Shown here: positions 2,425 through 38,836 of the stretch, one piece after another
Layout of the letters: the number at the start of each line of letters is the position of its first letter
Position numbering within the stretch: position 1 is the first letter of the stretch
DNA from: a virus
Taxonomy: Duplodnaviria; Caudoviricetes
IMG/VR virus record: IMGVR_UViG_3300022738_000051
Span: 1-38,836 of that record
Direction: 5' to 3' (one strand)
Length of the DNA stretch: 38,836 nt
The notes under the pieces: model-generated
Told to the model about the DNA's origin: nothing
The model's input: only the letters and a program-made list of their open reading frames with translations
Databases searched by the model: none
Position numbers and translations under genes: made by a program

Positions 2425-4607
2425 GGGAGTGGCTGAGCGCACAAGAGATTGCGGACGAGCGCCTGCCCGATCTGCCGACAACGAAACGGGGTGTAAACAA
2501 GCTGGCAGACGCTGCCGGCTGGAACACCCATCCCTGCTATGTCCGCGACCGCGCAGCAGTCGGCGGTGGCTTTGAATACAACTATCGTATCCTGCCGACG
2601 CTGCCGCAGGTCGCCTATGTCCAGCGCCACATGGTGGTGGGTACCGAGACGGCCGAGCCGGAAGCACCGGCCACAGCCGTGACGCCGGCCATGGTGAGCA
2701 ATCGCGCCGCGATGGAGCGCGATGCACGTCTTGCCATCCTCGGCGCCTTCGATCGTTTCTCGCGCGGTATGCGGCTGCACCAGCGCGCATGCATGCAGAT
2801 ATTCTGCGACCGCTATGCCATGGGCATGATCAAGGTCGACGACTGGGTGAAAGACCTCGTGCCTTCGGTCTCCAAGCGTTCGCTCGCCCGCTGGCGCTCC
2901 ATCAAATCCACCGGCGCCGAGAATGCCCTGGCCGTCGACCGTGGAAAGGCTCGGGCCGGAACCGGCGTTCTCGACACGGCCAATGGCGGAAAGATGCGTA
3001 CGTTCCTGCTGGCGCTCATCGCCAAAGCGCCGCAGCTCGCCGCCTCCGACGTCCGGACGCAATGCCGGTATGAGTTCGGCGATACGCTTGAAGTGGTTTC
3101 AAAGGGTGTTCGAAGGAGCGTTGAACTGCCCCCGGTCCGCACCTTCCAGCACTTCCTGAAGGCGCTGAAGGAAAACCACGCCGTCGAACTGACCAAGCTC
3201 ACGAACCCCGACAAGTTTCGCTCGACGATGGCGCTCTCCGGTGTCGGCACCCTTCGTCACATTACGGAGCCGAACGCCCTCTGGCAGATCGACGCCTCGC
3301 CAGTGGATGCCCTTTGCACCGACGGCCGGCACGCCATCTATTGCTGCATCGACATCGCGACGCGCCGATCCATCTGGTACGTCTCGCGCACGCCTCGCGC
3401 CTCGGCCGTTGCCCTGCTCATGCGCAAGGCCATCCTCGCCTGGGGCAAGCCCGATGCCGTCAAGACGGACAACGGGTCCGACTTCGTGGCCCGCGACACC
3501 AAGCGCCTGTTCGCCTCCGTATCGATCGAGCCGATCGTGTCCGACGCCTACAGCCCCGAGCAGAAGGGGCACGTCGAGCGCATGATCAAGACCTTCCAGC
3601 ACAAGTTCGCCGTGCTGCTGCCGGGCTATGTCGGGCACTCCGTCACGGACCGGAAGGCGATCGAAGACCGCAAGAGCTTCGCCGCCCGCCTCGGCGAGGA
3701 CGATGCGGAAACCTTCGGCGTCGCGCTCTCCGGCGCCGAGCTGCAGGACGCGGTCGATCGCTGGGCCTCGACGATGTACGAGCACGAGCCCCATGCCGGC
3801 CTGGGCGGTCGCACGCCCTTCCAGGTGGCGGCGTCCTCGACGGCACCGATCCGCACGGTCGACGAACGCGCACTGGACGTCTTGTTGATGCCGGTGGTCG
3901 GCAATGACGGCCGCCGCACGGTGACGAAGTTCGGCATCCGGATCGACCACCGCCACTATATCGCCGCGTCCATCCTGCCGGGCACCGACGTCTTCGTCCG
4001 CCGCGATCCGAACGACATGGGCCGCGCGCATGCTTTCAGCCTGGATGGTGGCATCTATCTCGGCGAGGCCCTTTGCCCCGAGCTGGCAGGCGTCCACCCG
4101 GAAACGTGGGTCCAGGCGCAGAAGGAGCTGCGGGCGGAGATCATCCGCGAAAAGACGTCCGAGATCCGCAAGGGCATCAGGGAGATCAACAAGGGTCCGG
4201 CGCTGCACGAGCGTGCGCTCGCCGTTGCCGCCCGCGATATCCCGAACGTTGTTCCGCTACCGAAGCGGGAGGAACGCCACGAGACGCCGCAAATCGCCGC
4301 CGCGCTCGATGTCGGCGCCAGCCCCAAGAAAACGGCATCCATGGCGACGGACGCCCAGCGTGAAATCGTTCTTGCGGATCTCGCTCCCCAGCGGCCGTTC
4401 GAGAACGTCACCCCCATCCGTAGCGAACCGACCCCCGCCCAGCGCTTCCGCACGGCGCTCGATATCGAGCAGCGCCACGCGGCGGGCGAACAGGTCGATG
4501 CGGACCAGCTCATCTGGCTCGGCTCCTACCGGGAGAGCGCCGAATACAAGGCGCAGCGGGCCATGTGGGAGGACTTCGGCGATCAGGCGCCGGGACTGCG
4601 TACCTGA
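2421..4607 (+). CDS. Mu-like DDE transposase A
   Basis: N-terminal Mu repressor-like domain (EWLSAQEIA..LPDLPTTKRGV); catalytic WQID, KTDNGSDF, KGHVER; Mu-type C-terminal barrel. Confidence 0.95.
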   Translation: MREWLSAQEIADERLPDLPTTKRGVNKLADAAGWNTHPCYVRDRAAVGGGFEYNYRILPTLPQVAYVQRHMVVGTETAEPEAPATAVTPAMVSNRAAMERDARLAILGAFDRFSRGMRLHQRACMQIFCDRYAMGMIKVDDWVKDLVPSVSKRSLARWRSIKSTGAENALAVDRGKARAGTGVLDTANGGKMRTFLLALIAKAPQLAASDVRTQCRYEFGDTLEVVSKGVRRSVELPPVRTFQHFLKALKENHAVELTKLTNPDKFRSTMALSGVGTLRHITEPNALWQIDASPVDALCTDGRHAIYCCIDIATRRSIWYVSRTPRASAVALLMRKAILAWGKPDAVKTDNGSDFVARDTKRLFASVSIEPIVSDAYSPEQKGHVERMIKTFQHKFAVLLPGYVGHSVTDRKAIEDRKSFAARLGEDDAETFGVALSGAELQDAVDRWASTMYEHEPHAGLGGRTPFQVAASSTAPIRTVDERALDVLLMPVVGNDGRRTVTKFGIRIDHRHYIAASILPGTDVFVRRDPNDMGRAHAFSLDGGIYLGEALCPELAGVHPETWVQAQKELRAEIIREKTSEIRKGIREINKGPALHERALAVAARDIPNVVPLPKREERHETPQIAAALDVGASPKKTASMATDAQREIVLADLAPQRPFENVTPIRSEPTPAQRFRTALDIEQRHAAGEQVDADQLIWLGSYRESAEYKAQRAMWEDFGDQAPGLRT

Positions 4608-9978: not shown

Positions 9979-10625
9979 CCTCCACCATCGCCGCCATCCA
10001 CACCGGCTTTAAACAGCTCGGCATTGCCGAGGACGATGACAAGCGGGCGATCTATGCCCGCGTCACCGGCAAGAGCCGCCTGTCGCTCATGAAGCCGGCG
10101 GAGAAGGACGCCGTGCTACAGGAGCTGCGCCGGCTCGGCTTCACGCCCACGCCGCGCCGGCCGAACGGGAAGCAACAGCTCACCGGCAGGTATGCCAAGA
10201 AGCTCCAGGCGCTTTGGATCGCCGCCTGGAACCTCGGCCTGGTCGACGATCGGGACGATGCCGCCCTGGTCGTCTTCGTCAAGCGCCAGACCGGCCTCGA
10301 CCAGGTGCGTTTCCTCCACCATGCCGACGATGCCCGCGCAGTTATCGAAGCGCTGAAGGGATGGATGGCGCGCGAGGCGTACGTCTCATACGGCTGCCTG
10401 AACGGACAGGAATGGCTTGCGGCCGATGGCGCCAAGGTCGCCTGGGCACAATGGCGGCTCCTCAATCCCGGCGCTGATCTCATCGCACGCAAGGGTTTCG
10501 ACCGCGCCGTCTATTCCATCATCGGCGGCCCGCGGGTCCACCTCGGCGAGGTGAAGGGCAAGGAGTGGCAGGCGGTCATGAACGACCTCGGCCATCGCGT
10601 CCGTGCGCTGAAGGCTGGTGTGTGA
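9975..10625 (+). CDS. gemA: GemA / Mu gp16 family (DUF1018) regulator
   Basis: IAAIHTGFKQLGIAEDDDKRAIYARVTGKSRL...KKLQALW...ARAVIEALKGW. Confidence 0.88.
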   Translation: MTSTIAAIHTGFKQLGIAEDDDKRAIYARVTGKSRLSLMKPAEKDAVLQELRRLGFTPTPRRPNGKQQLTGRYAKKLQALWIAAWNLGLVDDRDDAALVVFVKRQTGLDQVRFLHHADDARAVIEALKGWMAREAYVSYGCLNGQEWLAADGAKVAWAQWRLLNPGADLIARKGFDRAVYSIIGGPRVHLGEVKGKEWQAVMNDLGHRVRALKAGV

Positions 10626-11362
10626 TGCGCGCCGTGATGAATTCTCGCCACCACCCGAGCGATTCCCTCGACTATTTCCCGACGCCGCCCTGGGCGACCC
10701 GCGCCGTGGTGCGTGAGGTGCTGATCCCGATTTTCCGGCCGAAGTGGTTCCAGTTCTCCGATCTTGTCGCCCTGGACCCGTGCGTCGGCGGCGGTCACAT
10801 GGCTGCGCCGCTGCGTGAGGTTTTCGGTGAGGTCGAGATTTCCGACGTCTTCGACTGGGGCATCAACCCGCCGATCCGCGACTTCACGTTCGAGACGATC
10901 GACACGCTCGCGGCTGACGGCCGCGCCCGGCCGGATTGGATCTTCTGCAATCCCCCCTTCAAGATCGCCCAGGTCTTCCTCGAGCGCTCGCTGCTGATCG
11001 CCCGTATGGGCTGCGCCTTCTTCGTGCGCACCGGCTGGCTGTCCGGCCAGGAGCGGTATGATCTCATCTACCGGGACAACCCGCCAACCTACGTTGTGCA
11101 CTTCGCCGAGCGCGTCTCGCTGATCGAGAAGGCCTGGGATCCCGAGTGCAAGGGCGCAACGGATTACGTCTGGCTGATCTGGATCGCCGGCATGGCGCCG
11201 CAGCCGCCCATCTGGCTCCGGCCGGGCATGGCTGAACGATACACCGTTGCCTCCGACATGGTGCTTGCCACGCCCGGCGAGGCCAGGCGCCGCCTGGATG
11301 CGAAGAAGAAGCGGGAGAAGGAAGAGGCAGAGCGCCGCACGGCAGAACGGGCAGGTGCGTGA
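10625..11362 (+). CDS. putative N6-adenine DNA methyltransferase
   Basis: DYFPTPPW, SAM-binding LDPCVGGGHM, catalytic FCNPPF. Confidence 0.8.
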   Translation: MRAVMNSRHHPSDSLDYFPTPPWATRAVVREVLIPIFRPKWFQFSDLVALDPCVGGGHMAAPLREVFGEVEISDVFDWGINPPIRDFTFETIDTLAADGRARPDWIFCNPPFKIAQVFLERSLLIARMGCAFFVRTGWLSGQERYDLIYRDNPPTYVVHFAERVSLIEKAWDPECKGATDYVWLIWIAGMAPQPPIWLRPGMAERYTVASDMVLATPGEARRRLDAKKKREKEEAERRTAERAGA

Positions 11363-15440: not shown

Positions 15441-16882
15441 TGGGCCGCGCGCTGATCATTCCTGCCCATCGGGACGCGATCTTCCTCCCGTACCAGGCGA
15501 GGTGGATACAGGACAATTCCCGGCTGAAACAGATGGAGAAGGGCCGGCAGATCGGCCTTTCCTGGTCGACGGCCTATGCTACCGTCTCCCGTACTGCGCT
15601 GGCATCCGCCAAGCGCGACCAGTGGATTTCCTCGCGAGACGACATCCAGGCACGGCTATTTCTGGAGGACTGCAAGCTCTGGGCAGGCATCCTCGATCTC
15701 GCCGCCCAGGACCTCGGCGAGCAGGCCCTCGACCCCGACGGCAAGCAAAGTGCCTATGTGCTCCGCTTCGACAACAACCTGCGGATCAACTCCATGAGTT
15801 CGAACGCGGACGCCCAGGCCGGCAAGCGCGGCGGCCGCGTCCTCGACGAGTTCGCATTGCATCCCGATCCGCGAAAACTCTGGTCGATCGCCTATCCCGG
15901 CATCACCTGGGGCGGCTCGATGGAGATCATCTCCACGCATCGCGGTTCGAACAATTTCTTCAACCAGCTCGTCCGCGAGGTGAAGGAAGGCGGGAACCCC
16001 AAGAGGATAAGCCTTCATACCGTCACACTCCAGAACGCGCTCGACGACGGCTTCCTCTACAAGCTCCAGCAGTCGCTCCCGGCCGACGACGAGCGCCAGG
16101 AGATGACCGAGGCGGAATATTTCGATTGGGTGAAGTCCGGTTGCGCGGACGAAGAGAGCTTCCTTCAGGAATATATGTGCCAGCCGGCCGACGATGACGC
16201 GGCCTTCCTGGAATACGACCTTATTGCCGCCTGCGAGTATCCAACCGACTTCAATTTCCGCGCCATCGAGGGCCGCCAGCTCTATGCCGGCGTCGACATT
16301 GGCCGGAAGAAGGACCTGACCGTCCTTTGGGTTGTCGAGCGCCTTGGCGACGTCCTGTACACGCGGCACGTCGAATCCCTGCGGAACATGAGCAAGCCCG
16401 ACCAGGAGAAAGTCCTGTGGCCTTGGTTCGAGCGGTGCGTCTGCGTCTGCATCGACGCCACCGGCCTTGGCATCGGCTGGGCCGACGATGCTCAGAAGAA
16501 ATTCGGCGAGCATGCCGTCGAGGCGGTGACCTTCTCGGCGCCAGTGAAGGAGGCGCTCGCCTATCCCGTCCGCTCCAAGATGGAGGAGCGCCGGCTCCGC
16601 ATCCCGTTCGACAAGCATATTCGTGCCGATCTGCGCTCGGTAACGAAGCAGGTCTCGGCTGCGGGGAACATTCGCTTCACCGCCGAACGCACCGCCGACG
16701 GCCATGCCGACCATTTCTGGGCGCTCGCTCTCGCCATCGAGGCGGCCGGTGGGCCGCAGATGCAATACGGCTACAAGCCCGTGCCGCGTGCTCCCACCAA
16801 GTTCGACACCCCGAACACCGACCGCGATGACGGCGCTCCGTCACGGTTGTCATCCATGCGCCGCTCAAGAGGTATCTACTGA
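15440..16882 (+). CDS. terminase large subunit (Mu gp28-like)
   Basis: LPYQARW, EKGRQIGLSW, VLDEFA, GVDIGRKKDLT, IDATGLG, HADHFWALAL. Confidence 0.95.
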   Translation: MGRALIIPAHRDAIFLPYQARWIQDNSRLKQMEKGRQIGLSWSTAYATVSRTALASAKRDQWISSRDDIQARLFLEDCKLWAGILDLAAQDLGEQALDPDGKQSAYVLRFDNNLRINSMSSNADAQAGKRGGRVLDEFALHPDPRKLWSIAYPGITWGGSMEIISTHRGSNNFFNQLVREVKEGGNPKRISLHTVTLQNALDDGFLYKLQQSLPADDERQEMTEAEYFDWVKSGCADEESFLQEYMCQPADDDAAFLEYDLIAACEYPTDFNFRAIEGRQLYAGVDIGRKKDLTVLWVVERLGDVLYTRHVESLRNMSKPDQEKVLWPWFERCVCVCIDATGLGIGWADDAQKKFGEHAVEAVTFSAPVKEALAYPVRSKMEERRLRIPFDKHIRADLRSVTKQVSAAGNIRFTAERTADGHADHFWALALAIEAAGGPQMQYGYKPVPRAPTKFDTPNTDRDDGAPSRLSSMRRSRGIY

Positions 16883-18465
16883 TGGCTCCCCAGCTCGTCG
16901 ACCAGTACGGCAGGCCGATCAGCACGGCCGCGCTGAAGCGGGAACAGGCAGCCCCGACCATGACCGGCGTGCGCCGCCCGAATACCGAGCATCAGACCTC
17001 CGGCTTGACCCCTGACAAACTCGCACGCTTGCTGAGGGCCAGCGTCAGCGGCGACCCGGAGGCGTATCTCGCGCTCGCCGAGGACATGGAGGAGCGAGAT
17101 CTTCACTATGCCGGCGTGCTCGGCTCCCGCAAGCTCCAGGTCGCCGGCCTGGATGCGACCGTCGAGGCGGCGAGCGACAAGGCCGAGGATATCGACAATG
17201 CGGACCTGATCCGCGATTTCCTCGCGCGGGACGCCTTCGAAACCGAGGCGAACGACATCCTTGACGCGGTCGGCAAGGGCTTCTCCTGCACGGAAATCAT
17301 CTGGGATACCTCCGAAAGCCAGTGGGACCCGGTCGCCTTGAAATGGCGCGATCCACGGTGGTTCCGGTTTGCCGACGAGGACGGTGAGACACCATTGCTG
17401 CGCGATCCGGCCGGCGATCAGCCGCTTGCCCCGTACAAATGGGTGTTTCACCAGGCGAAGGTGAAGTCGGGCCTGCCGATCCGGGGTGGCATCGCCCGCG
17501 CCGTGTGCTGGACATTCCTTTTCAAAACTTTCACCACGAAGGACTGGGCGATCTTCTGCGAAGCCTACGGTCAGCCTCTCCGCCTCGGGAAGTGGGGCGA
17601 AGGTGCGTCGGAAGCGGACAAGGAAATCCTTCTGCAGGCGGTCGCCAATATCGGGGTCGACTATTCCGCCATCGTGCCGGCGTCGATGTCGGTCGAATTC
17701 ATCAAGGCCGATGTCACGGGCTCGCACGAGCTTTACGAAAAGCGCTGCGACTGGCTGGACCGGCAGGTCTCTAAGCTCGTGCTCGGCCAGACCGGGACCA
17801 CGGACATGACGGCCGGCGGCTACGCCCAGGCGAAGGTGCACGACGGCGTCAAGGCCGACATCGAACGCTCCGACGCCAAGCAGCTTGCCGCCACCCTCAA
17901 CCGGGATCTCGTGCGGCCGTACATCGACCTGAACAAGGGCCCGCAGAAGGCATATCCGAAGATCAAGATCGGTCGGCCCGAACAGATCGACGTCGAAAAG
18001 TGGATGAAGAATGTCGAAACCTTCGTCGCCATGGGTGGCAAGATCGGCATGTCCACCGTCCGCGACCGCATCGGCGCGCCGGAGCCCGACAAGGATGAAG
18101 AGCTGCTCGTGCCGCGCGGCAACGCCGCGGCGCCGGCCGCAGAGCCGCCCGCCGAGGAGAAGCCGCCCGTCAACGGCAAGGTCGCCGCCCAGCGCGCCGG
18201 CACACCCGCGAGGGCGACGGACGCGATCGACAAGTCTGTCGCCGAGATCATCGATGATGACGGGTGGGCGGAGTTGATCGAGCCGATCGTCGCCGGCCTG
18301 GACGACGCCATCGCCAGCGCCACGACCATGGAGGAGGTTCGCTCGCTCATCGCCGATCGATACCGCGACATGGACGTGAGCGCGCTCACCGACATGCTCG
18401 CTCGCGCCGCATTCTCTGCGCGTCTCGCCGGCATCGGCGGCGACGATCTCGGCGGTGAGGGCTGA
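16882..18465 (+). CDS. portal protein (DUF935, Mu gp29-like)
   Basis: EDMEERDLHY, DAVGKGFSCTEIIW, FCEAYGQPLRLGK, VSKLVLGQT. Confidence 0.93.
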   Translation: MAPQLVDQYGRPISTAALKREQAAPTMTGVRRPNTEHQTSGLTPDKLARLLRASVSGDPEAYLALAEDMEERDLHYAGVLGSRKLQVAGLDATVEAASDKAEDIDNADLIRDFLARDAFETEANDILDAVGKGFSCTEIIWDTSESQWDPVALKWRDPRWFRFADEDGETPLLRDPAGDQPLAPYKWVFHQAKVKSGLPIRGGIARAVCWTFLFKTFTTKDWAIFCEAYGQPLRLGKWGEGASEADKEILLQAVANIGVDYSAIVPASMSVEFIKADVTGSHELYEKRCDWLDRQVSKLVLGQTGTTDMTAGGYAQAKVHDGVKADIERSDAKQLAATLNRDLVRPYIDLNKGPQKAYPKIKIGRPEQIDVEKWMKNVETFVAMGGKIGMSTVRDRIGAPEPDKDEELLVPRGNAAAPAAEPPAEEKPPVNGKVAAQRAGTPARATDAIDKSVAEIIDDDGWAELIEPIVAGLDDAIASATTMEEVRSLIADRYRDMDVSALTDMLARAAFSARLAGIGGDDLGGEG

Positions 18466-18467
18466 CC

Positions 18468-19685
18468 TTGCCGATCACGCTGAAGCCGCTACCGCCGCTC
18501 GATGCCATTGCCGCCTTCGATCTTCGCAAGGCGAACCTCTCCGAATCCTTCTCCTGGCAGGATTTCTGGCAGGAGGATCATGCTACGGCCTTCACCGTGG
18601 CGAAGTCGGCCGGCTTCGACATCCTGAAGGACGTTTCCGACGCCTTTGAAAAGGCTTTGAAGGACGGGCGTACGCCGGCCGAGTTCGCCCGGTCGCTTCG
18701 GCCGGTGCTGGAGGCGAAGGGATGGTGGGGCAAGAAGCTGGTCGAGGACCCGCTTACGGGCGAGGTGCGGCCGGCGCAGCTCGGCAGCGCGCGCCGCCTG
18801 CAGACGATCTTCGACGCGAACATGCGGGTATCCTATGCGGCCGGCCACTGGGCTGGCTTCGAGCGCAATCGGCGGGGGCGTCCCTTCCTGCGGTATGTCT
18901 GCATCCTGGATGAGCGGACCCGCCCTGCACATCGCGCCAGGCACAATCTCGTCCTGCCGATCGACCATCCCTATTGGGACATGTGGGCGCCGCCCTGTGG
19001 CTGGAACTGCCGCTGCACGCTGCAGAGCCTTTCCCAGCGTGACATCGACCGGCTGCTGGTAGAAGGCGAGGAACTGCGTTTCGAGCCGCCGGAAGACACC
19101 TTCCGCAACTTTGTGAACAGGCGCACCGGGGAGATCATGCGGGTCCCGGACGGCATCGATCCGGGCTGGGCTTACAATCCGGGCCGTGCCGGCTACGAGG
19201 CGCGCGTCAACAGAGCCGTGGCCGAGAAGATCGCCGATGCTTCGCCCGAGCTGGTGAAGGCGGCCGTCGAGGAGCGTGTCGGCAGCAGCGCCTTCGAACG
19301 GTTCGTGACCCAGCCGCAGGGCAGCATGCCCGTCATGCCGATATCACCCGCGCTCGCGGCTTCTCTCGGCATAGACGCCCGCGTCGCGCTCCTGTCGGCC
19401 GAGACCATGGCGAAGCAGATCGCCCGGCATCCGGAGATGACGATCGCGGACTACCGGCTGTTGCCGAGTTTCCCCGACAAGGCGACCATTGCCATTGTCG
19501 ACGGCCCGCTTTCTGTTGTGCTGATCCGGCTTGCCAGTGGGCGGTGGCTTCATGCCGTGGTCAAATCGACCAGGAGCCGGAAGGCTGCATTCCTCACCAG
19601 CTTTCGATTCACCAGCGAGGACCGCGTGCAGAAGCTCATCGAGCGCGAGGGCGCGCGGATCGTGTTCGACAGGCGGAAGGAGTGA
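18468..19685 (+). CDS. MuF (gp30) head morphogenesis protein with C-terminal PBECR-like nuclease extension
   Basis: AFTVAKS, RRLQTIFDAN, DERTRPAH, PPCGWNCRC, GIDPGWAYNPG; then an extra domain KQIARHPEMTIADY...AVVKST...FLTSFR. Confidence 0.85.
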   Translation: MPITLKPLPPLDAIAAFDLRKANLSESFSWQDFWQEDHATAFTVAKSAGFDILKDVSDAFEKALKDGRTPAEFARSLRPVLEAKGWWGKKLVEDPLTGEVRPAQLGSARRLQTIFDANMRVSYAAGHWAGFERNRRGRPFLRYVCILDERTRPAHRARHNLVLPIDHPYWDMWAPPCGWNCRCTLQSLSQRDIDRLLVEGEELRFEPPEDTFRNFVNRRTGEIMRVPDGIDPGWAYNPGRAGYEARVNRAVAEKIADASPELVKAAVEERVGSSAFERFVTQPQGSMPVMPISPALAASLGIDARVALLSAETMAKQIARHPEMTIADYRLLPSFPDKATIAIVDGPLSVVLIRLASGRWLHAVVKSTRSRKAAFLTSFRFTSEDRVQKLIEREGARIVFDRRKE

Positions 19686-19776
19686 TGTGCACGGTAGGGC
19701 CTCGCAGGAACCCTACATAGCGGTCCCATCCGGAGATGGTCCTACGGCCGCGAGAATGTCACCGTGTCACGCGCAC
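19683..19776 (-). ncRNA. candidate tRNA-like structured RNA convergent with muF
   Basis: 7-bp closing stem, three arms, GGUUC in the last arm, CUCGC/GCGAG loop-loop complementarity; G-U pairs only on the - strand; promoter immediately upstream. Confidence 0.65.
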
Positions 19777-19782
19777 CGGAGA

Positions 19783-19812
19783 GATATAGCACGACCGCTC
19801 CCTTTCTTCAAA
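19783..19812 (-). promoter_or_regulatory. sigma70-type promoter for the antisense RNA
   Basis: - strand TTTGAA-N17-CTATAT (equivalently TTGAAG-N17-TATATC), close to the rhizobial CTTGAC-N17-CTATAT consensus; predicted start ~19776-19778. Confidence 0.65.
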
Positions 19813-20037: not shown

Positions 20038-21177
20038 ATGAAAAACGCGCTCTCCCTTCTCGCCACCGCCATTCTTTCGGCGCACGTCACCGAGCTTTCG
20101 GATGACGCTGCCGATGGCGTGTGGATCCAGTTGATCCCGGCTGGCACCTTCAGCGGCCGCGACGGCCGCGGCCCGTATCATGCCGGTGACGAGAAGAGCG
20201 TCCGGCAGATCGCCGACCTGACGCGCCAGTACCATGGCACGACCGACATCGTCATCGACTACGAGCACCAGACCCGGAACGCCCTGGAGAACGGCAAGCC
20301 CGCGCCGGCGGCCGGATGGATCAAATCGGTCGAGGCGCGCAACGACGGTCTCTTCGGCCGCGTCGAATGGACGGCCGCTGCCGCCACGGCGATCCGCGCG
20401 AAGGAATACCGCTATCTCTCGCCGGTCTATTTCCACGGCAAGGACGGCAAGATCTTCGCCCTGCAGAACGCGGCGCTCACCAACGCGCCCAACCTCGTGA
20501 TGTCGGAAGTCTCCGCTCACTCGATCTTCCCGCAAGCCCAAGAGGAACCCATGAAGAGATTGCTCGCCGCCCTCGGCCTGGCCGAAGGCGCAAGCGAGGA
20601 TGATGCGCTCGTCGCCATCAACTCGTATCTGACCAGCTCGACGGCGATCGCCGTCGCCGCTGGCCTGACCAGGGACGCCAAGTCGGACGCCATCCTGACG
20701 GCCGTTCAGTCCGCATTCGCCGATCGCAAGAAGATTGCGATCGCGGTCGGCAAGCCGGAAACGGCCAGCGCCGACGAGATCGTAACGGCGATCAGCGCCG
20801 CCCAGACGGCGGGGGCCGTCGATCCGACCAAGTACGTCCCGATCGCCCAGGTCGCCGCCATGCAGGCCGACCTGAACGCGCTGAAGGAGCAGGTCGGCAA
20901 GGACAAGGCGGAAGAGGCCGTCGATGCGGCCATCCGCGATGGCAAGGTCATTCCCGCCCTCAGGGAGTGGGCCATCTCCGTCCACAAGCAGGACCCGGCC
21001 AAGTTTACCGAATTCGTCGGCAAGGCTCCGGTGCTGACCTCTTCGCAGCGGACCGCCACCGCCAAGAATCCCGACAACGGCGGCAGCCAGCTCGACGACG
21101 CCGAGATCGCCGTGATGCGGCAGATGGGGCTCTCCGAGGAGCAGATGCTGAAGGCCAAGAAAGGTGGTGATGCATGA
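20038..21177 (+). CDS. Mu gpI-like prohead protease/scaffold
   Basis: GRDGRGP, IDYEHQT, PAPAAGWI, EYRYLSPV, ALTNAPNL. Confidence 0.93.
   Translation: MKNALSLLATAILSAHVTELSDDAADGVWIQLIPAGTFSGRDGRGPYHAGDEKSVRQIADLTRQYHGTTDIVIDYEHQTRNALENGKPAPAAGWIKSVEARNDGLFGRVEWTAAAATAIRAKEYRYLSPVYFHGKDGKIFALQNAALTNAPNLVMSEVSAHSIFPQAQEEPMKRLLAALGLAEGASEDDALVAINSYLTSSTAIAVAAGLTRDAKSDAILTAVQSAFADRKKIAIAVGKPETASADEIVTAISAAQTAGAVDPTKYVPIAQVAAMQADLNALKEQVGKDKAEEAVDAAIRDGKVIPALREWAISVHKQDPAKFTEFVGKAPVLTSSQRTATAKNPDNGGSQLDDAEIAVMRQMGLSEEQMLKAKKGGDA
20551..21177 (+). CDS. nested in-frame scaffolding protein (Mu gpZ-like)
   Basis: Internal GAGGA RBS (20542-20546) then ATG, MKRLLAALGL..., after the protease domain. 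Confidence 0.65.
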   Translation: MKRLLAALGLAEGASEDDALVAINSYLTSSTAIAVAAGLTRDAKSDAILTAVQSAFADRKKIAIAVGKPETASADEIVTAISAAQTAGAVDPTKYVPIAQVAAMQADLNALKEQVGKDKAEEAVDAAIRDGKVIPALREWAISVHKQDPAKFTEFVGKAPVLTSSQRTATAKNPDNGGSQLDDAEIAVMRQMGLSEEQMLKAKKGGDA

Positions 21178-26583: not shown

Positions 26584-26960
26584 CGAAGGCGGCCGTTGCC
26601 TGGGCGAACGCCCGCACCGGCCGCAGCGATCGCACGCAAGCCGCCGCGGTCGACGCCGACGTCCAGGCGCAGTTTCGTCAGCTCGGCGTCTGCGTACCCG
26701 TGGATCACGAGGAGACCATCGCCATCATGGAATGCAACTGGCCATCGCTTGACGCCTTCCTCGCCTGCTCGACGCAGTGGCGCACGGCCGTCGTCATCAT
26801 GGGCGGCGGCGCTGCCATAACTTCGCAGCTCATGTTCGTCGGTCTCGACTATGCGGCCTGCGATATCGTGCTGCGCGCCCGCAATGCCCCGGCCCACGTC
26901 CTCGAGGACATCATGGCCATGGAAGAGGCCGTGCTGCCGCTTCTGAACGAGGTCGACTGA
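26574..26960 (+). CDS. -1 frameshift extension of the chaperone (gpGT-like; DUF1799-like)
   Basis: The -1 frame is open from GGGAAAC to TGA 26960; CNWPSLDAFLACSTQWR...GLDYAA. Confidence 0.78.
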   Translation, partial: GKLTKAAVAWANARTGRSDRTQAAAVDADVQAQFRQLGVCVPVDHEETIAIMECNWPSLDAFLACSTQWRTAVVIMGGGAAITSQLMFVGLDYAACDIVLRARNAPAHVLEDIMAMEEAVLPLLNEVD

Positions 26961-29900
26961 TGGCCGCCCCGCTCAAGATCTCCGCCCGCGTCGAGATCGA
27001 CGCCAGCGCCGCCAAGCAGGGCGCGGCCGCTTCGGTCTCTGCCGTCGATTCGATCGGCACAGCCGCGGAACGGAACACGACGAAGCTGCAGGCGCTCATC
27101 AACGCCTCTGTCGGCCTGAAGAGCGGGGCCGCCAACCAGAACGTCCGCGAGTGGACCGGCGCGCTTGCCATGCAGGGCAGGTCCATCGACGAACTGCGCG
27201 CGAAATACAATCCGCTCTTCGCCACGATCAGCCAGTACAAGACGGCGCTTTCCGAGATCCGCACCCTGCACGCCCAGGGCGTTCTCTCGACCAACGAAAT
27301 GACCGCGGCCATCCAGCGCCAGCGGCAGGCGGCGCTGGCGTCGATCGATGCCATCAAGGGGCGTGCCTCCGTCATCCATGGAGGGATCAACGGAGAAGCC
27401 GGCTTCCGGCGGCAGAACCTCGGCTATCAGCTCTTCGACATCGGCCAGGGCGTCAGCGCTGGCATGCCCGCAGGAATGATCGCCGCGCAGCAGCTGCCCC
27501 AGATCGCCCAGATCTATGCCGGACAGGGCGGCGGCATCAAAGCTCTGCTGTCGGACGTCGGAAGCCTCGCGACCGGCGCGGTGTCTGCGATCGGCGCCAT
27601 GCCGCTCGCGCTCGCCGCCGCCGGCACTGCTGCTCTTCTCTATGATCGAAACGTGTCTTCGGCGGCGGCACAAGCGCAGAAAGCCCTCGTGAAACACGAA
27701 GAAGCGCTGGAACGGATCAAAACACTCTTCGATGAGAGCGGATCCGCATCAGAGCGCTTTGGGCAACGTGTGCAGAGCGCGATCAGCTTTACCGCCCGCT
27801 CGGACAACCGAAGCCTGGAAGATGCGCTCGCGCGGCAGACCGCGGCGGCAGGGACGGAACTGCTCAATGCCGTGCCGCGCGGTTCTGGCGCAGCCATGGC
27901 AAATCTCTATGGCCCCTATCTCAGCGCCGTCCAGCATTTCATTGCCGAGGCGCGGCAGGGGCGTGGCGACGTTGCTGCCTTCAACGAGGAAGTCATCAGG
28001 ATCGGCAATGCCAACCAGGCCGACGCCAAGGTGCAACGCATCGGCCAGAAGCTGCTCGATACCACGAAGGCAGCCACGGACACTGCGACAGCCATCAAGA
28101 AACTCAACGACGAGCTCTCGCGCACGACGATGAGCACGGCGCGCACCGACGCGGCGCTGACGATGGCGCAGTACCGGATCGCGAATGCGGATGCACTCGC
28201 AGCGATCCGCCGCGGGAGCTCGGCGGAGCTTGCCGGCATCGGCGCTCGCTCTCCTGCAGAACTTGCGGAGGCAGCTCGCGCGCGCGTACGTGCCGAACCC
28301 GTCGATCCGCGTGAGAGTGTCGAGGTCAGAACCGCGCGCGAGAACGCGGCCGCGGCGTTGGCCCAAGCCCAAGCCGAGCGGCAACTGTCCGACGCCCGGC
28401 AGGAAAGGAGCCGGTCTCTCGATCAAACGCTCTCCCAGCAGCAGCTCGAGCTCTCGCTGATCGGCAAGACGGTCGGCGAGCAGGAGCGCCTGCGCATGGC
28501 GTTCCGGCTGACCTCCGAGCTGAAGGCCGAGGCCGCCCGCAATAACATGCAGGTCGATGCGGCCGAGCTGGCGCATGTGCAGAAGCTCTCGGCCGAATAC
28601 GGCCGACTGGCCGAGCAGATGGCCGCCTCTCGGCTTCTTGCCGACCTCCAGTTCGAGCGTGAGCAGCTTTCCCGCTCGCCCAGCGACCAGCGCATTGCCA
28701 GCCAGTTGCGCGGTGCGGGCTTGCCCGTCGACCTCAAGTCCTACGAGGCCGGCATCATGCGTGCGAACGAGGCGCTGCGAAAGCAGGTCTCGGCATGGGA
28801 GGAAGTCCGCAATGCCGGCCGCAGCGCCATCGACGACATCACGGAATCGTCCCTGGACGGTTTCAAGGGTATCGAAGACACGCTGGCGAACATCGGCAAG
28901 GGCTTGGCCAAACAGCTGCTGCAGCTGGGTATCGCCAATCCGCTGAAGAACGCGATCTACGGCGATCAGCTTCCGACGATCAGCGACGTTGGCGGCGTGG
29001 GCGGCTTCTTTTCGAAGCTCTTCGGCGGCGGTATGTCGACGGCCTCCATGTCCGTCCAGGCCGCGACCGTCAGCGTCAACGGCGGCCTTGCCGGCGGCGT
29101 CGGCAGCCTCCTGGGCGCAAACGACAACTTCAAGCCCAACACGACCCTGTCGGCGCTTCTCGGCTATGGCGGCGCGGCGAACGACAATGCCTTCAGCGGC
29201 ATCCTCAAAGCCGCAGGCGTAACGAAAACCGGCATTCCACTCTCCGAAGTTACTGCGGCTCGTGGTCTTTCAGCGAAGGTCGCTTCGGAATTCGCCCCGC
29301 GGTTCCAAGGGCTTTTGAACGACCTCAAGACCGCCGGCTACAACATCACTTCGCTTGGTGAAGGCGGTTACAGCTTCAGGAACGTTGCCGGCACCAGCAA
29401 GCTGTCCCGGCATGCTTTCGGCGAAGCGATAGACATTAATCCGAGGCAGAACCCCTGGAGCCATCAGTTCCAGACGGACCTGCCGTCGAACATCAACGAG
29501 ATCGCCAGGCGTAACGGGCTCACCTGGGGCGGGACCTGGAACAAGCCCGACACGATGCACTTCCAGGTGGATCATGCGTCGAAGGCTTTGGAGAAGCTGT
29601 CTTCGACGACGGACATCGCCGCGAGCGGCCTCGGGTCGCTGGGCACCGGCCTCGACAAGTTCGGCAACGCCCTTTCGAGCGCGCAGCTCGGTGCGGGCGG
29701 CACGGGTGGCGGCGGCCTGCTCGGCGGGCTGGGCAAGCTGTTCGGCGGCATCAGCTCCACCAGTTCGCTATGGGCCCCGAACACGACGCTGGGCAGTTTC
29801 CTGACGCGCGGGTATCGGGTCGGCGGCCCGACCGGAGGCGACGATCCGGACCGCATCGCCGGCGTCGTTCACGAGAAGGAGTTCGTGTTCGACGCGGCGT

Positions 29901-30241
29901 CGACGGCGCGCATCGGCGTGGCGAACCTCGAAGGCCTGCGCCGTGGTGTCATGCGCGGTTTCCGGGCGGGCGGTTACGTCACCGTCGCCCAGGCCTATCC
30001 CAGCCCGACAGCGCGCGGGCAGGATCGTGATGGGGCCCCGGCCATGGGCGGCTTCAGCCAAACGATCATCAACAACACCGGCCAGCCGATCCACACCGAG
30101 GAGCGCGCCGACGGGCGTGGCGGCCAGCAGCAGGTCATGATTGTCGGGGACATGGTTGCCCAGGCGATGTCGCAGCCCGGCAATGCCGCCAACAGGGCGC
30201 TGGCGGCACGCGGCGCCGTCAAGCCGATGGTGCGCCGATGA
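26960..30241 (+). CDS. tail tape measure protein with embedded M15-family peptidase domain
   Basis: TGATG-coupled start; QNLGYQLFDI...QQLPQIAQIY tape-measure motif; Ala-rich helices; SRHAFGEAID...WGGTW..PDTMHFQ; AGVVHEKEFV. Confidence 0.92.
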   Translation: MAAPLKISARVEIDASAAKQGAAASVSAVDSIGTAAERNTTKLQALINASVGLKSGAANQNVREWTGALAMQGRSIDELRAKYNPLFATISQYKTALSEIRTLHAQGVLSTNEMTAAIQRQRQAALASIDAIKGRASVIHGGINGEAGFRRQNLGYQLFDIGQGVSAGMPAGMIAAQQLPQIAQIYAGQGGGIKALLSDVGSLATGAVSAIGAMPLALAAAGTAALLYDRNVSSAAAQAQKALVKHEEALERIKTLFDESGSASERFGQRVQSAISFTARSDNRSLEDALARQTAAAGTELLNAVPRGSGAAMANLYGPYLSAVQHFIAEARQGRGDVAAFNEEVIRIGNANQADAKVQRIGQKLLDTTKAATDTATAIKKLNDELSRTTMSTARTDAALTMAQYRIANADALAAIRRGSSAELAGIGARSPAELAEAARARVRAEPVDPRESVEVRTARENAAAALAQAQAERQLSDARQERSRSLDQTLSQQQLELSLIGKTVGEQERLRMAFRLTSELKAEAARNNMQVDAAELAHVQKLSAEYGRLAEQMAASRLLADLQFEREQLSRSPSDQRIASQLRGAGLPVDLKSYEAGIMRANEALRKQVSAWEEVRNAGRSAIDDITESSLDGFKGIEDTLANIGKGLAKQLLQLGIANPLKNAIYGDQLPTISDVGGVGGFFSKLFGGGMSTASMSVQAATVSVNGGLAGGVGSLLGANDNFKPNTTLSALLGYGGAANDNAFSGILKAAGVTKTGIPLSEVTAARGLSAKVASEFAPRFQGLLNDLKTAGYNITSLGEGGYSFRNVAGTSKLSRHAFGEAIDINPRQNPWSHQFQTDLPSNINEIARRNGLTWGGTWNKPDTMHFQVDHASKALEKLSSTTDIAASGLGSLGTGLDKFGNALSSAQLGAGGTGGGGLLGGLGKLFGGISSTSSLWAPNTTLGSFLTRGYRVGGPTGGDDPDRIAGVVHEKEFVFDAASTARIGVANLEGLRRGVMRGFRAGGYVTVAQAYPSPTARGQDRDGAPAMGGFSQTIINNTGQPIHTEERADGRGGQQQVMIVGDMVAQAMSQPGNAANRALAARGAVKPMVRR

Positions 30242-38035: not shown

Positions 38036-38836
38036 ATGGTGAATATGCAGCCGGTTGACCCGGTTTCTCCCGCCGCTCCCTACATCGGCGGCAAGCGCGT
38101 GCTTTCCAAGGCTATCATCCGCAAGATCAACGCGATCGACCATGATGGTTACGCCGAGCCGTTTGTGGGCATGGGAGGCATCTTCCTGCGTCGGACGATG
38201 CAGCCGCGGATGGAGGCGATCAACGATATCAGCGGGGACGTTGCCAACCTCTTCCGCATCCTGCAGCGGCACTACCCGCAGTTCATGGAGACCCTGCGTT
38301 TCCAGATCACCAGCCGCCGGGAATATGAACGGCTGGTGAAGGTGGACCCGACAACGCTCACCGATCTCGAACGCGCGGCCCGTTTCCTCTATCTCCAGCG
38401 CTTGGCGTTCGGAGGCAAGGTCTCCGGTCGTAACTTCGGCGTCGTCAAGAGCGGAGGCGCCCGGTTCAATCTCCTGAAGCTCGCGCCGCTGCTGGAGGAC
38501 ATCCACGAGCGCCTTGCCGGCGTCGTCATCGAGTGCCTGCCGTGGCGCACCTTCATCAAGCGCTATGACCGCCCTGGCATGCTCTTCTACCTGGACCCAC
38601 CCTACTGGGGGAACGAGAATGATTATGGGGCCGGTGCCTTCGGCCGGAGCGAATTCGCGGAGATGGCCGACGTCCTGGCAAGCCTTCAAGGCACCTTCAT
38701 CGTGTCCTTAAACGCGGTTCAAGGCGTCTTCGATACCTTCAAGGATTTCGGCATCGAGGAGGTGGATTGCACTTACACCATCGCCGGCAAGGGCCGCGGA
38801 AAGCAAGTGCGGGAAGTGATCATAACGAGAAGATGA
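38036..38836 (+). CDS. D12-class DNA adenine methyltransferase in the mom position (alternative start at 38045)
   Basis: PYIGGK, YAEPFVGMGGIF, EAINDI, FYLDPPY. Confidence 0.93.
   Translation: MVNMQPVDPVSPAAPYIGGKRVLSKAIIRKINAIDHDGYAEPFVGMGGIFLRRTMQPRMEAINDISGDVANLFRILQRHYPQFMETLRFQITSRREYERLVKVDPTTLTDLERAARFLYLQRLAFGGKVSGRNFGVVKSGGARFNLLKLAPLLEDIHERLAGVVIECLPWRTFIKRYDRPGMLFYLDPPYWGNENDYGAGAFGRSEFAEMADVLASLQGTFIVSLNAVQGVFDTFKDFGIEEVDCTYTIAGKGRGKQVREVIITRR

Follow-up and report, generated by a model that had tools for sequence, protein, structure and literature searches.

In the MuF polymorphic toxins discussed in passages of Jamet et al. 2017 (PMC5576092), a variable C-terminal domain is swapped as a cassette together with the content downstream of it, and a small immunity open reading frame (ORF) comes next in 89.4% of 191 cases; the same passages leave many Proteobacterial MuF extensions as of unknown type. 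MuF fusions are also treated in passages of Iyer et al. 2017 (PMC5512222) on PBECR domains, whose active site comprises a His on the N-terminal helix, a preceding Lys and a Ser or Thr on the last strand, and according to parts of a second account (bioRxiv 10.64898/2026.08.28.747851) the members that have been characterized in the colicin-like group with a Lys/His site mostly cut tRNA. The PBECR passages of these two sources mention no RNA partner or immunity factor. We analyzed the 38,836-nucleotide IMG/VR record IMGVR_UViG_3300022738_000051 (the window, positions 1 to 38,836), a Mu-like prophage that is 99% complete. Its muF gene, encoding a Mu gp30-like minor head protein, ends in a PBECR-like tail predicted to be a ribonuclease (RNase). 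As in the known MuF toxins, the tail moves as a cassette with what lies behind it; unlike them, it is followed not by a small immunity ORF but by a putative non-coding RNA on the opposite strand with its own predicted promoter. We lean, with a little more than even confidence, toward the view that this RNA stands in for an immunity protein and guards against a virion-borne RNase.

The closest named relatives of muF occur in Shinella and other Rhizobiaceae. A preliminary description of this DNA, made from the letters alone, had noted an extension of about 130 residues after the GWAYNPG motif and suggested comparing it with BECR folds. The extension is present, with a length of 166 residues, and a BECR fold is supported by an AlphaFold model and by structural matches to BECR RNases. 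Residues 262-405 were modeled as a single domain at a predicted local distance difference test score (pLDDT) of 97.5. When the full-length model was compared with known structures, the six best VIA rows were all BECR RNases, namely BrnT, two CdiA-CTs, a Salmonella toxin, colicin D and RelE (Z 4.2-5.5, root-mean-square deviation 2.7-4.3, 72-86 aligned), and Foldseek with the tail placed BrnT first (probability 1.0, template modeling score by target 0.69), with nothing at E <0.001. A PDB sequence search using the tail profile gave no credible match. The nearest clusters in the ESM Atlas were PBECR2, PBECR3 and MuF_C (scores 0.79-0.85, leads only). At E ≤0.001, 337 cluster representatives were related to the tail, and sub-threshold PBECR2, PBECR3 or MuF_C matches were seen in 14 of the 80 that were scanned; the homologues stay below the Pfam cut-offs of these families (16-25 bits vs 27-30). 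S310, K316, H321, P322, Y329 and S378 are invariant among 42 tails of type A, the type behind which the RNA family of the window occurs, and the K-x4-H motif was present in 53/53 RNA-linked tails. The modeled tail fits the PBECR fold and its H321/S378 site, and ribonuclease activity is predicted from the fold, the conserved residues and the passages of PMC5512222.

The minus-strand element behind muF has the sequence and coordinates that had been given for it, and it is present as a single copy in the record. Homologues of this family (family A) were sought with a DNA pattern that was derived from the element's 5′ part independently of any protein and that returned 120 of an estimated 260 viral stretches in IMG/VR. 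The 92-row alignment comprises 87 of 107 parsed matches, the window and four MuF loci; near-duplicate, over-long and mis-parsed rows were excluded. With the predicted four-way junction, 98.0% of cells were paired, as opposed to 79.9% after shuffling and 36-52% with slid partners, and 0/500 shuffles reached the observed level. Both sides had changed in 20 of 29 pairs. The proposal that the two outer loops are complementary was borne out by the same covariation: in the resulting pseudoknot 99.7% of cells were paired, and 3 of the 4 pairs tested had changed on both sides. The pairs with the highest mutual information are predicted pairs, those of the pseudoknot included, and position 19718 shows covariation with the pseudoknot's central pair, which predicts a base triple. 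P1 consists of 7 covarying or invariant pairs, with an eighth in 15/92 copies, and P4 follows it without a linker. P2 is invariant and was partly fixed by the search pattern, so it receives no covariation support in this family.

A second family, B, was represented by 47 pattern matches and an alignment of 43 rows (85% paired, 23/31 pairs with change on both sides); here 4/7 P2 pairs changed on both sides. The two families share the order of their stems, a YGRC linker and the loop-loop contact. Folding of the single sequence was uninformative (minimum free energy z -1.0 on the minus strand, -0.2 on the plus strand), and a hand-written structure descriptor proved too loose, scoring tail-less loci nearly as well, so covariance models were used instead. 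G-U cells outnumbered A-C cells on the minus strand by 170:12, or 81:12 without a near-invariant U-G pair. This excess, on which the preliminary strand assignment had also relied, fixes the minus strand as that of the predicted RNA; an element acting at the DNA level was rejected because of the same bias.

An RNA of its own would need a promoter, and one had been proposed at its 5′ end. A promoter-like site passed the score before 67 of 83 gene-linked copies but in only 9.7% of shuffles. It is mostly of the form TTG(A/C)-17-TATA(C)T, lies 6-12 nt ahead of the stem, and is kept even when it and the next gene's start overlap. The comparative signal thus upholds the proposal, while the site in the window itself is imperfect: its -10 box, TATATC (19788-19783), lacks the final T, and a generic promoter scanner reported none in the window. 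Stranded RNA sequencing of a phage Fc02 lysogen, in the relevant passages of PMC9936078, reports transcription of the regulatory region only. Fc02 has a degenerate PBECR2-type tail and no gap after muF, hence no slot for the RNA, so that data set is not a test of it.

We examined the association of RNA and tail from both directions. Starting from the RNA, 83 of 115 distinct family-A and 31 of 36 family-B pattern matches lay directly behind a PBECR-like tail; the remainder included several mis-picked frames, displaced copies, chance matches, truncated loci and about 16 orphans. Starting from the protein, both models were run on 227 of 242 MuF loci (15 duplicate or short loci were left out), and the tally drops identical tails as well as 13 rows that were incomplete or had <150 nt downstream. 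A divergent subfamily (L309, L311, L312, L389) was kept out of the B count. RNA-A was found behind 39 of 47 A tails with an intact His and behind 0 B tails, and RNA-B behind 42 (plus 4 weak) of 50 His-intact B tails and 0 A tails. Neither occurred behind 8 PBECR2 tails, 10 tails classed as 'other' or 53 tail-less MuFs, the last being a comparison that had been set beforehand as a check. At five loci with His-intact tails (L081, L082, L325, L328, L037) the RNA was displaced 0.4-3 kb by inserted genes and was nevertheless kept. Family A spans Alpha-, Beta- and Gammaproteobacteria and Desulfovibrionaceae; a blastn search with its RNAs against cultured phages returned nothing.

At 29 loci where all three parts could be separated, distances between the RNAs correlated with those between the tails (rho 0.49, partial 0.49, p 0.001) but not with those between the MuF parts (partial 0.13, p 0.12), and tail and MuF distances were uncorrelated (0.04). 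Since the divergence of the RNA tracks the tail rather than MuF, tail and RNA move together: they are a swappable, toxin-immunity-like cassette across MuF backbones. Linkage alone could produce the correlation between RNA and tail, but not the retained structure or the decay after loss of the His described below.

Other tails are followed by other content. The BrnT-like tail of L315 is succeeded by a small ORF, an example of further enzyme-type tails that have ORFs instead. Behind PBECR2 tails (L062, L066, L073, L076, L077, L321, L323) a third kind of convergent promoter-plus-structure element was recognized by eye, and it is also present behind the PBECR2 tails of RcapMu (L418, 21525-21616) and RR1-B (L419, 18226-18328). 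Several elements of this kind end in a terminator-like hairpin with a loop complementary to an upstream loop. Separately, the A-type tails of four Aurantimonadaceae loci (L032, L271, L273, L275) have a short, near-invariant convergent sequence in the first 60 nt past the stop codon, behind a promoter-like site, that matches neither model. Divergent convergent RNAs with apparent loop-loop pairing were noted behind other PBECR-like tails (L316, L400, L402, L309, L312, L075, L078, L351, L352), with a compensatory change in the predicted knot between L309 and L312. At L040 and L058 a sequence about 130-190 nt past a short tail-less muF, in the accessory slot, looks like a c4-type antisense cassette.

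Tails that lack the predicted catalytic His had no RNA in the fetched flank in 11/11 cases (7 A, 4 B). On trees, the His-less A tails fall into at least one well-supported clade, whose four members lie among RNA-bearing tails, and three long branches; the B tails represent three changes. A record-wide search of all eleven records, three of which are fragments, recovered a single copy, in L008; the same search recovered the RNA in 4/4 genomes known to hold it. The L008 copy lies 2.1 kb away and is decayed relative to that of its intact relative L006, with the -10 box gone, a mismatch in the pseudoknot and the closing stem broken. Among named phages, B3 has both the His and RNA-B (79 bits). JBD67 and Mu carry B-type tails without the His; their muF overlaps gene G, leaving no gap, and there is no RNA. 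For Mu gp30 this agrees with the passage of Iyer et al. 2017 (PMC5512222) in which the tail is called inactive. The pairing of a predicted RNase tail with a convergent structured RNA in place of an immunity ORF, the central claim of the preliminary description, thus has strong support: the RNA covaries, occurs with the tail, pairs with it in cognate fashion and is lost along with the predicted catalytic His.

The orphans, RNA copies without an adjoining tail, provide a different view. We searched 22 records for A-type tails; of the 7 near-complete ones among them, 6 held none, the seventh being the L008 record. Across 13 aligned orphans 336/349 cells remained paired. A promoter was seen in 4/16, and the copies lie among late or accessory genes; one begins 2 nt past a tRNA-Met gene (L178, 242-335) and another about 125 nt past a tRNA-Thr gene (L127, 1735-1838), both on the strand of the tRNA, and those of L095 and L109 have ACCA ends. 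Because the full fold is kept, it appears that the RNA can act without being antisense to muF, and the orphans argue for action in trans through structure. Orphan immunity and a role of the RNA on its own would both fit them.

We found no sign of a conventional immunity gene, as had been noted before: plus-strand ORFs after muF had no PHROG or Pfam match, and no frame was conserved. RNA lengths are spread evenly over the three frames (32/32/28, n=92), and a small immunity peptide encoded over the RNA was rejected on the absence of a conserved frame. This applies equally to the annotated B3ORF34 (L417, 1790-1888; NC_006548, 18980-19078), a 32-residue hypothetical protein that overlies RNA-B on the opposite strand and is probably mis-annotated. 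Comparison with Rfam 15 gave no match in the window (E up to 1) or in 20 loci (gathering score); in 15 further loci searched at E up to 1 there was only a weak BjrC80 row (E 0.3) overlapping part of the L380 element. A c4/CI antisense identity was discarded, there being no Rfam match. Elsewhere in L380, positions 3500-3594 fall just below the gathering score of the Rfam family sRNA-Xcc1 (46.7 vs 53 bits). The computational outcomes that the preliminary description had named as contradicting it, namely a fold without covariation, the RNA behind muF genes lacking the extension, and assignment in the window or the 35 loci to an Rfam family of unrelated function, did not arise.

The likeness to tRNA that had been proposed for the element holds for its topology, with a 7-bp closing stem, three arms and a loop-loop contact, and fails for the details. 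ARAGORN made no tRNA call on the element. A CCA end was present in 2/92 family-A copies, and GGUUC, which had been read as a T-loop, in only 27/92; in 48/92 a hairpin is inserted in the last loop. The P3 apex varies in length and sequence, with no conserved anticodon-type loop. Because CCA, GGUUC and the middle loop are not conserved and the last loop often contains a hairpin, family A, as judged from the alignment, is neither an anticodon mimic nor the bearer of a T-loop, and its conserved surface is the junction and the knot. A group of related B-type tails (L307, L380, L416) is followed by an RNA with a canonical T-arm, of 5 bp with a 7-nt loop, in the same slot, on the same strand and with the same promoter position. 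In L380 (= L410, L414) this RNA, at about 2773-2863 on the minus strand, has a long closing stem and received no ARAGORN or Rfam call. The T-arm hints at a tRNA-like origin for the group.

Under the immunity reading, the MuF tail would be a tRNA-type ribonuclease, likely packaged in the head and injected with the DNA, as SPP1 gp7 and Mu gp30 suggest in passages of PMC5576092 and PMC5512222. The RNA, made from its own predicted host-type promoter, would likely bind and block the cognate nuclease directly, and it may be expressed in lysogens and just after injection. Because an RNA antidote would not have to be translated, the toxin could be neutralized at once by an incoming genome or by a resident prophage, whereas a cell that destroyed the incoming DNA would face the nuclease unopposed. 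While the phage grows lytically, the RNA may protect a cell that is making many copies of MuF, and the orphan RNAs of unrelated phages would be orphan immunity genes.

Several observations weigh against this proposal. The tail of the window has no Pfam or PHROG match, and its structural matches are modest (Z ≤5.5; Foldseek E 0.02-0.08). Both covariance models were built in part from loci that entered the tally; L081, L082 and most genome and metagenome loci stood outside the training alignments. Twelve His-intact rows (8 A and 4 B tails) have no nearby model match; of these, L037 has its RNA 3 kb off, and most others carry, by eye, another convergent promoter-plus-structure element. In L261 the His is present but a search of the genome yielded no RNA, while L341 has kept the RNA with an Arg in place of the His, a residue that one PBECR family has at that position according to passages of Iyer et al. 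(PMC5512222). The generic scanner saw no terminator after the RNA, which leaves its 3′ end undefined and means that the transcript may run antisense into muF. The only RNA run containing the stretch consists of contigs with flat depth and is silent on strand and level. Finally, orphans in 6/7 near-complete records, which lack an A-type tail, give the RNA value without the protein, which an independent function fits equally well, and co-inheritance and co-loss are equally expected if the RNA needed the nuclease.

These last points would also be accommodated if the RNA is itself an effector or cofactor, such as a decoy against a host tRNA-targeting defense, a guide or a ribonucleoprotein scaffold, that the PBECR tail matures, carries or uses. 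We consider this unlikely. It would account for orphans that keep the fold in genomes without an A-type tail, mostly lack a promoter, lie in late or accessory regions and in two cases follow tRNA genes, as well as for the sub-lineage with a canonical T-arm; co-loss with the His fits a need for cleavage, and no terminator defines a 3′ end. However, the RNA has its own predicted convergent promoter, separate from late muF transcription, and would be made when the protein is not; each of several PBECR families has a fold of unrelated appearance in this slot, a pattern typical of cognate immunity genes; and an effector acting alone should outlast loss of the His, whereas the RNA is absent or decaying there.

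The convergent layout, with full complementarity to the late message by construction, would also suit a type I-like antisense RNA that represses leaky muF-toxin message in cis in the lysogen, its fold serving only for stability. Both the absence of a terminator and co-loss with the His are in keeping with this, but nearly the whole RNA is tied up in its stems and its pseudoknot, the latter with a predicted base triple, leaving little free to pair, and orphans co-oriented with their neighbors keep the fold with no muF opposite; we regard such a role as improbable. The slot past muF often takes inserted genes, and an independent element such as a self-cleaving ribozyme or a processing signal might have settled there and hitch-hiked with the tail, as the existence of orphans would allow. 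With its invariant junction bases and pseudoknotted four-way junction, the RNA is reminiscent of catalytic RNAs generally. Against this stand the 0/53 tail-less MuFs, the lack of cross-pairing between families, the decay after loss of the His, and the absence of any Rfam ribozyme match in the window or 35 loci, and we give it very little credence.

If the RNA does provide immunity, the system would link two fields: polymorphic toxins are defined as a toxin plus an immunity protein, and RNA antitoxins are known from few families. The RNA family is widespread and uncatalogued, with about 260 estimated family-A matches in IMG/VR, and sits in the immunity slot. It would explain, in a way that can be tested, why immunity ORFs are missing beside Proteobacterial MuF extensions and PBECR domains and why Mu gp30 needs none, and B3 (His and RNA) and JBD67 (neither) form a cultured model pair. 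A bolder extension, possible but doubtful in our estimation, is that all PBECR nucleases are virion-delivered, tRNA-cutting toxins with RNA immunity, that the RNAs are tRNA-shaped decoys from a T-arm ancestor in which the D/T elbow became a Watson-Crick knot, that they diversified in lock-and-key fashion, that orphans are stolen immunity, and that RNA immunity would here be met in a polymorphic toxin system for the first time. The literature covered, to which the supplements of PMC5737381, files 1, 2 and 4 of PMC10690425 and subscription papers did not belong and where an anonymous catalogue entry is therefore possible, contains no description of an RNA beside MuF or PBECR genes.

Table 1. Positions of muF, its tail, the predicted RNA and flanking genes in the window.
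Feature	Position	Strand	Details
muF (Mu gp30-like minor head protein)	18468..19685	+	405 aa; PF04233 at residues 55-185
Portal gene (Portal_Mu)	16882-18465		flanks muF
Protease I gene (Mu-like_Pro)	20038-21177		flanks muF
C-terminal PBECR-like (BECR fold) domain, predicted RNase	19251..19682	+	residues 262-405
K316-Q-x-x-x-H321 motif	19413..19430	+	predicted active-site Lys/His, pre-core helix
S378	19599..19601	+	last core strand; conserved S/T of PBECR active sites
Structured RNA, family A (predicted)	19687..19776	-	four-way junction closed by 7-bp P1 (19776-19770 with 19693-19687); covariance model R1 99 bits
Arm P2 and loop L2	19744..19765	-	conserved G-N-N-A-N-U-C, then 5′ pseudoknot strand 19754-19750
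Arm P3	19722..19742	-	2-bp helix, A/GA internal loop, stem of variable length and variable apex; 7/7 pairs change both sides
Arm P4 and loop L4	19694..19716	-	stacked on P1; 3′ pseudoknot strand 19705-19701
Predicted sigma-70-type promoter	19783..19811	-	-35 19811-19806, 17-nt spacer, -10 19788-19783; start at/next to 19776

Elsewhere in the window, the tape-measure protein (26777-30241) contains a Peptidase_M15_4 domain, D-Ala-D-Ala carboxypeptidase-like, at residues 871-931, and there are two DNA methyltransferase genes (10565-11362 and 38036-38836; phrog_799 and a D12-class adenine methyltransferase). D12-like genes also occur in L325, L328 and L152, as the inserts by which the RNA is displaced.

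Bacterial Y RNA YrlA is a tRNA-like RNA. Family A resembles tRNA in its 7-bp closing stem, in having three arms in the same order with the last stacked on the closing stem, and in the contact between first and last loops; it differs in that a Watson-Crick pseudoknot replaces the D/T-loop elbow, CCA is lacking, the middle-arm apex is variable and the last loop has an optional hairpin. With the PBECR and MuF-C domains of PMC5512222 and bioRxiv 10.64898/2026.08.28.747851, in the passages that define them, the tail shares the BECR fold, the Lys-His helix, the S/T strand and the fusion to MuF; its subfamily differs from PBECR2, PBECR3 and MuF_C in falling under the Pfam cut-offs. As for MuF polymorphic toxins, a variable extension in the packaging module is present and a downstream immunity ORF is absent. 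The type III systems ToxIN, CptIN and TenpIN, together with AvcID and AbiF, are alike in combining a protein toxin, usually an endoribonuclease, with a cognate pseudoknotted RNA, in the relevant passages of PMC12283969. In type III operons as described there, the RNA forms tandem repeats that, together with a terminator, lie upstream of the toxin gene, whereas here the RNA is single-copy, downstream and convergent, with a separate predicted promoter and no terminator; it forms a predicted four-way junction, and the BECR-fold toxin is fused to a virion protein and is not a cytoplasmic abortive-infection protein. The operon-type layout is thus absent, and the cognate pseudoknotted RNA of the broad definition, which already takes in AvcID and AbiF in the same passages (PMC12283969), is present. 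Under that definition the tail and its RNA would be a new type III family with an unusual layout and a virion-borne toxin.

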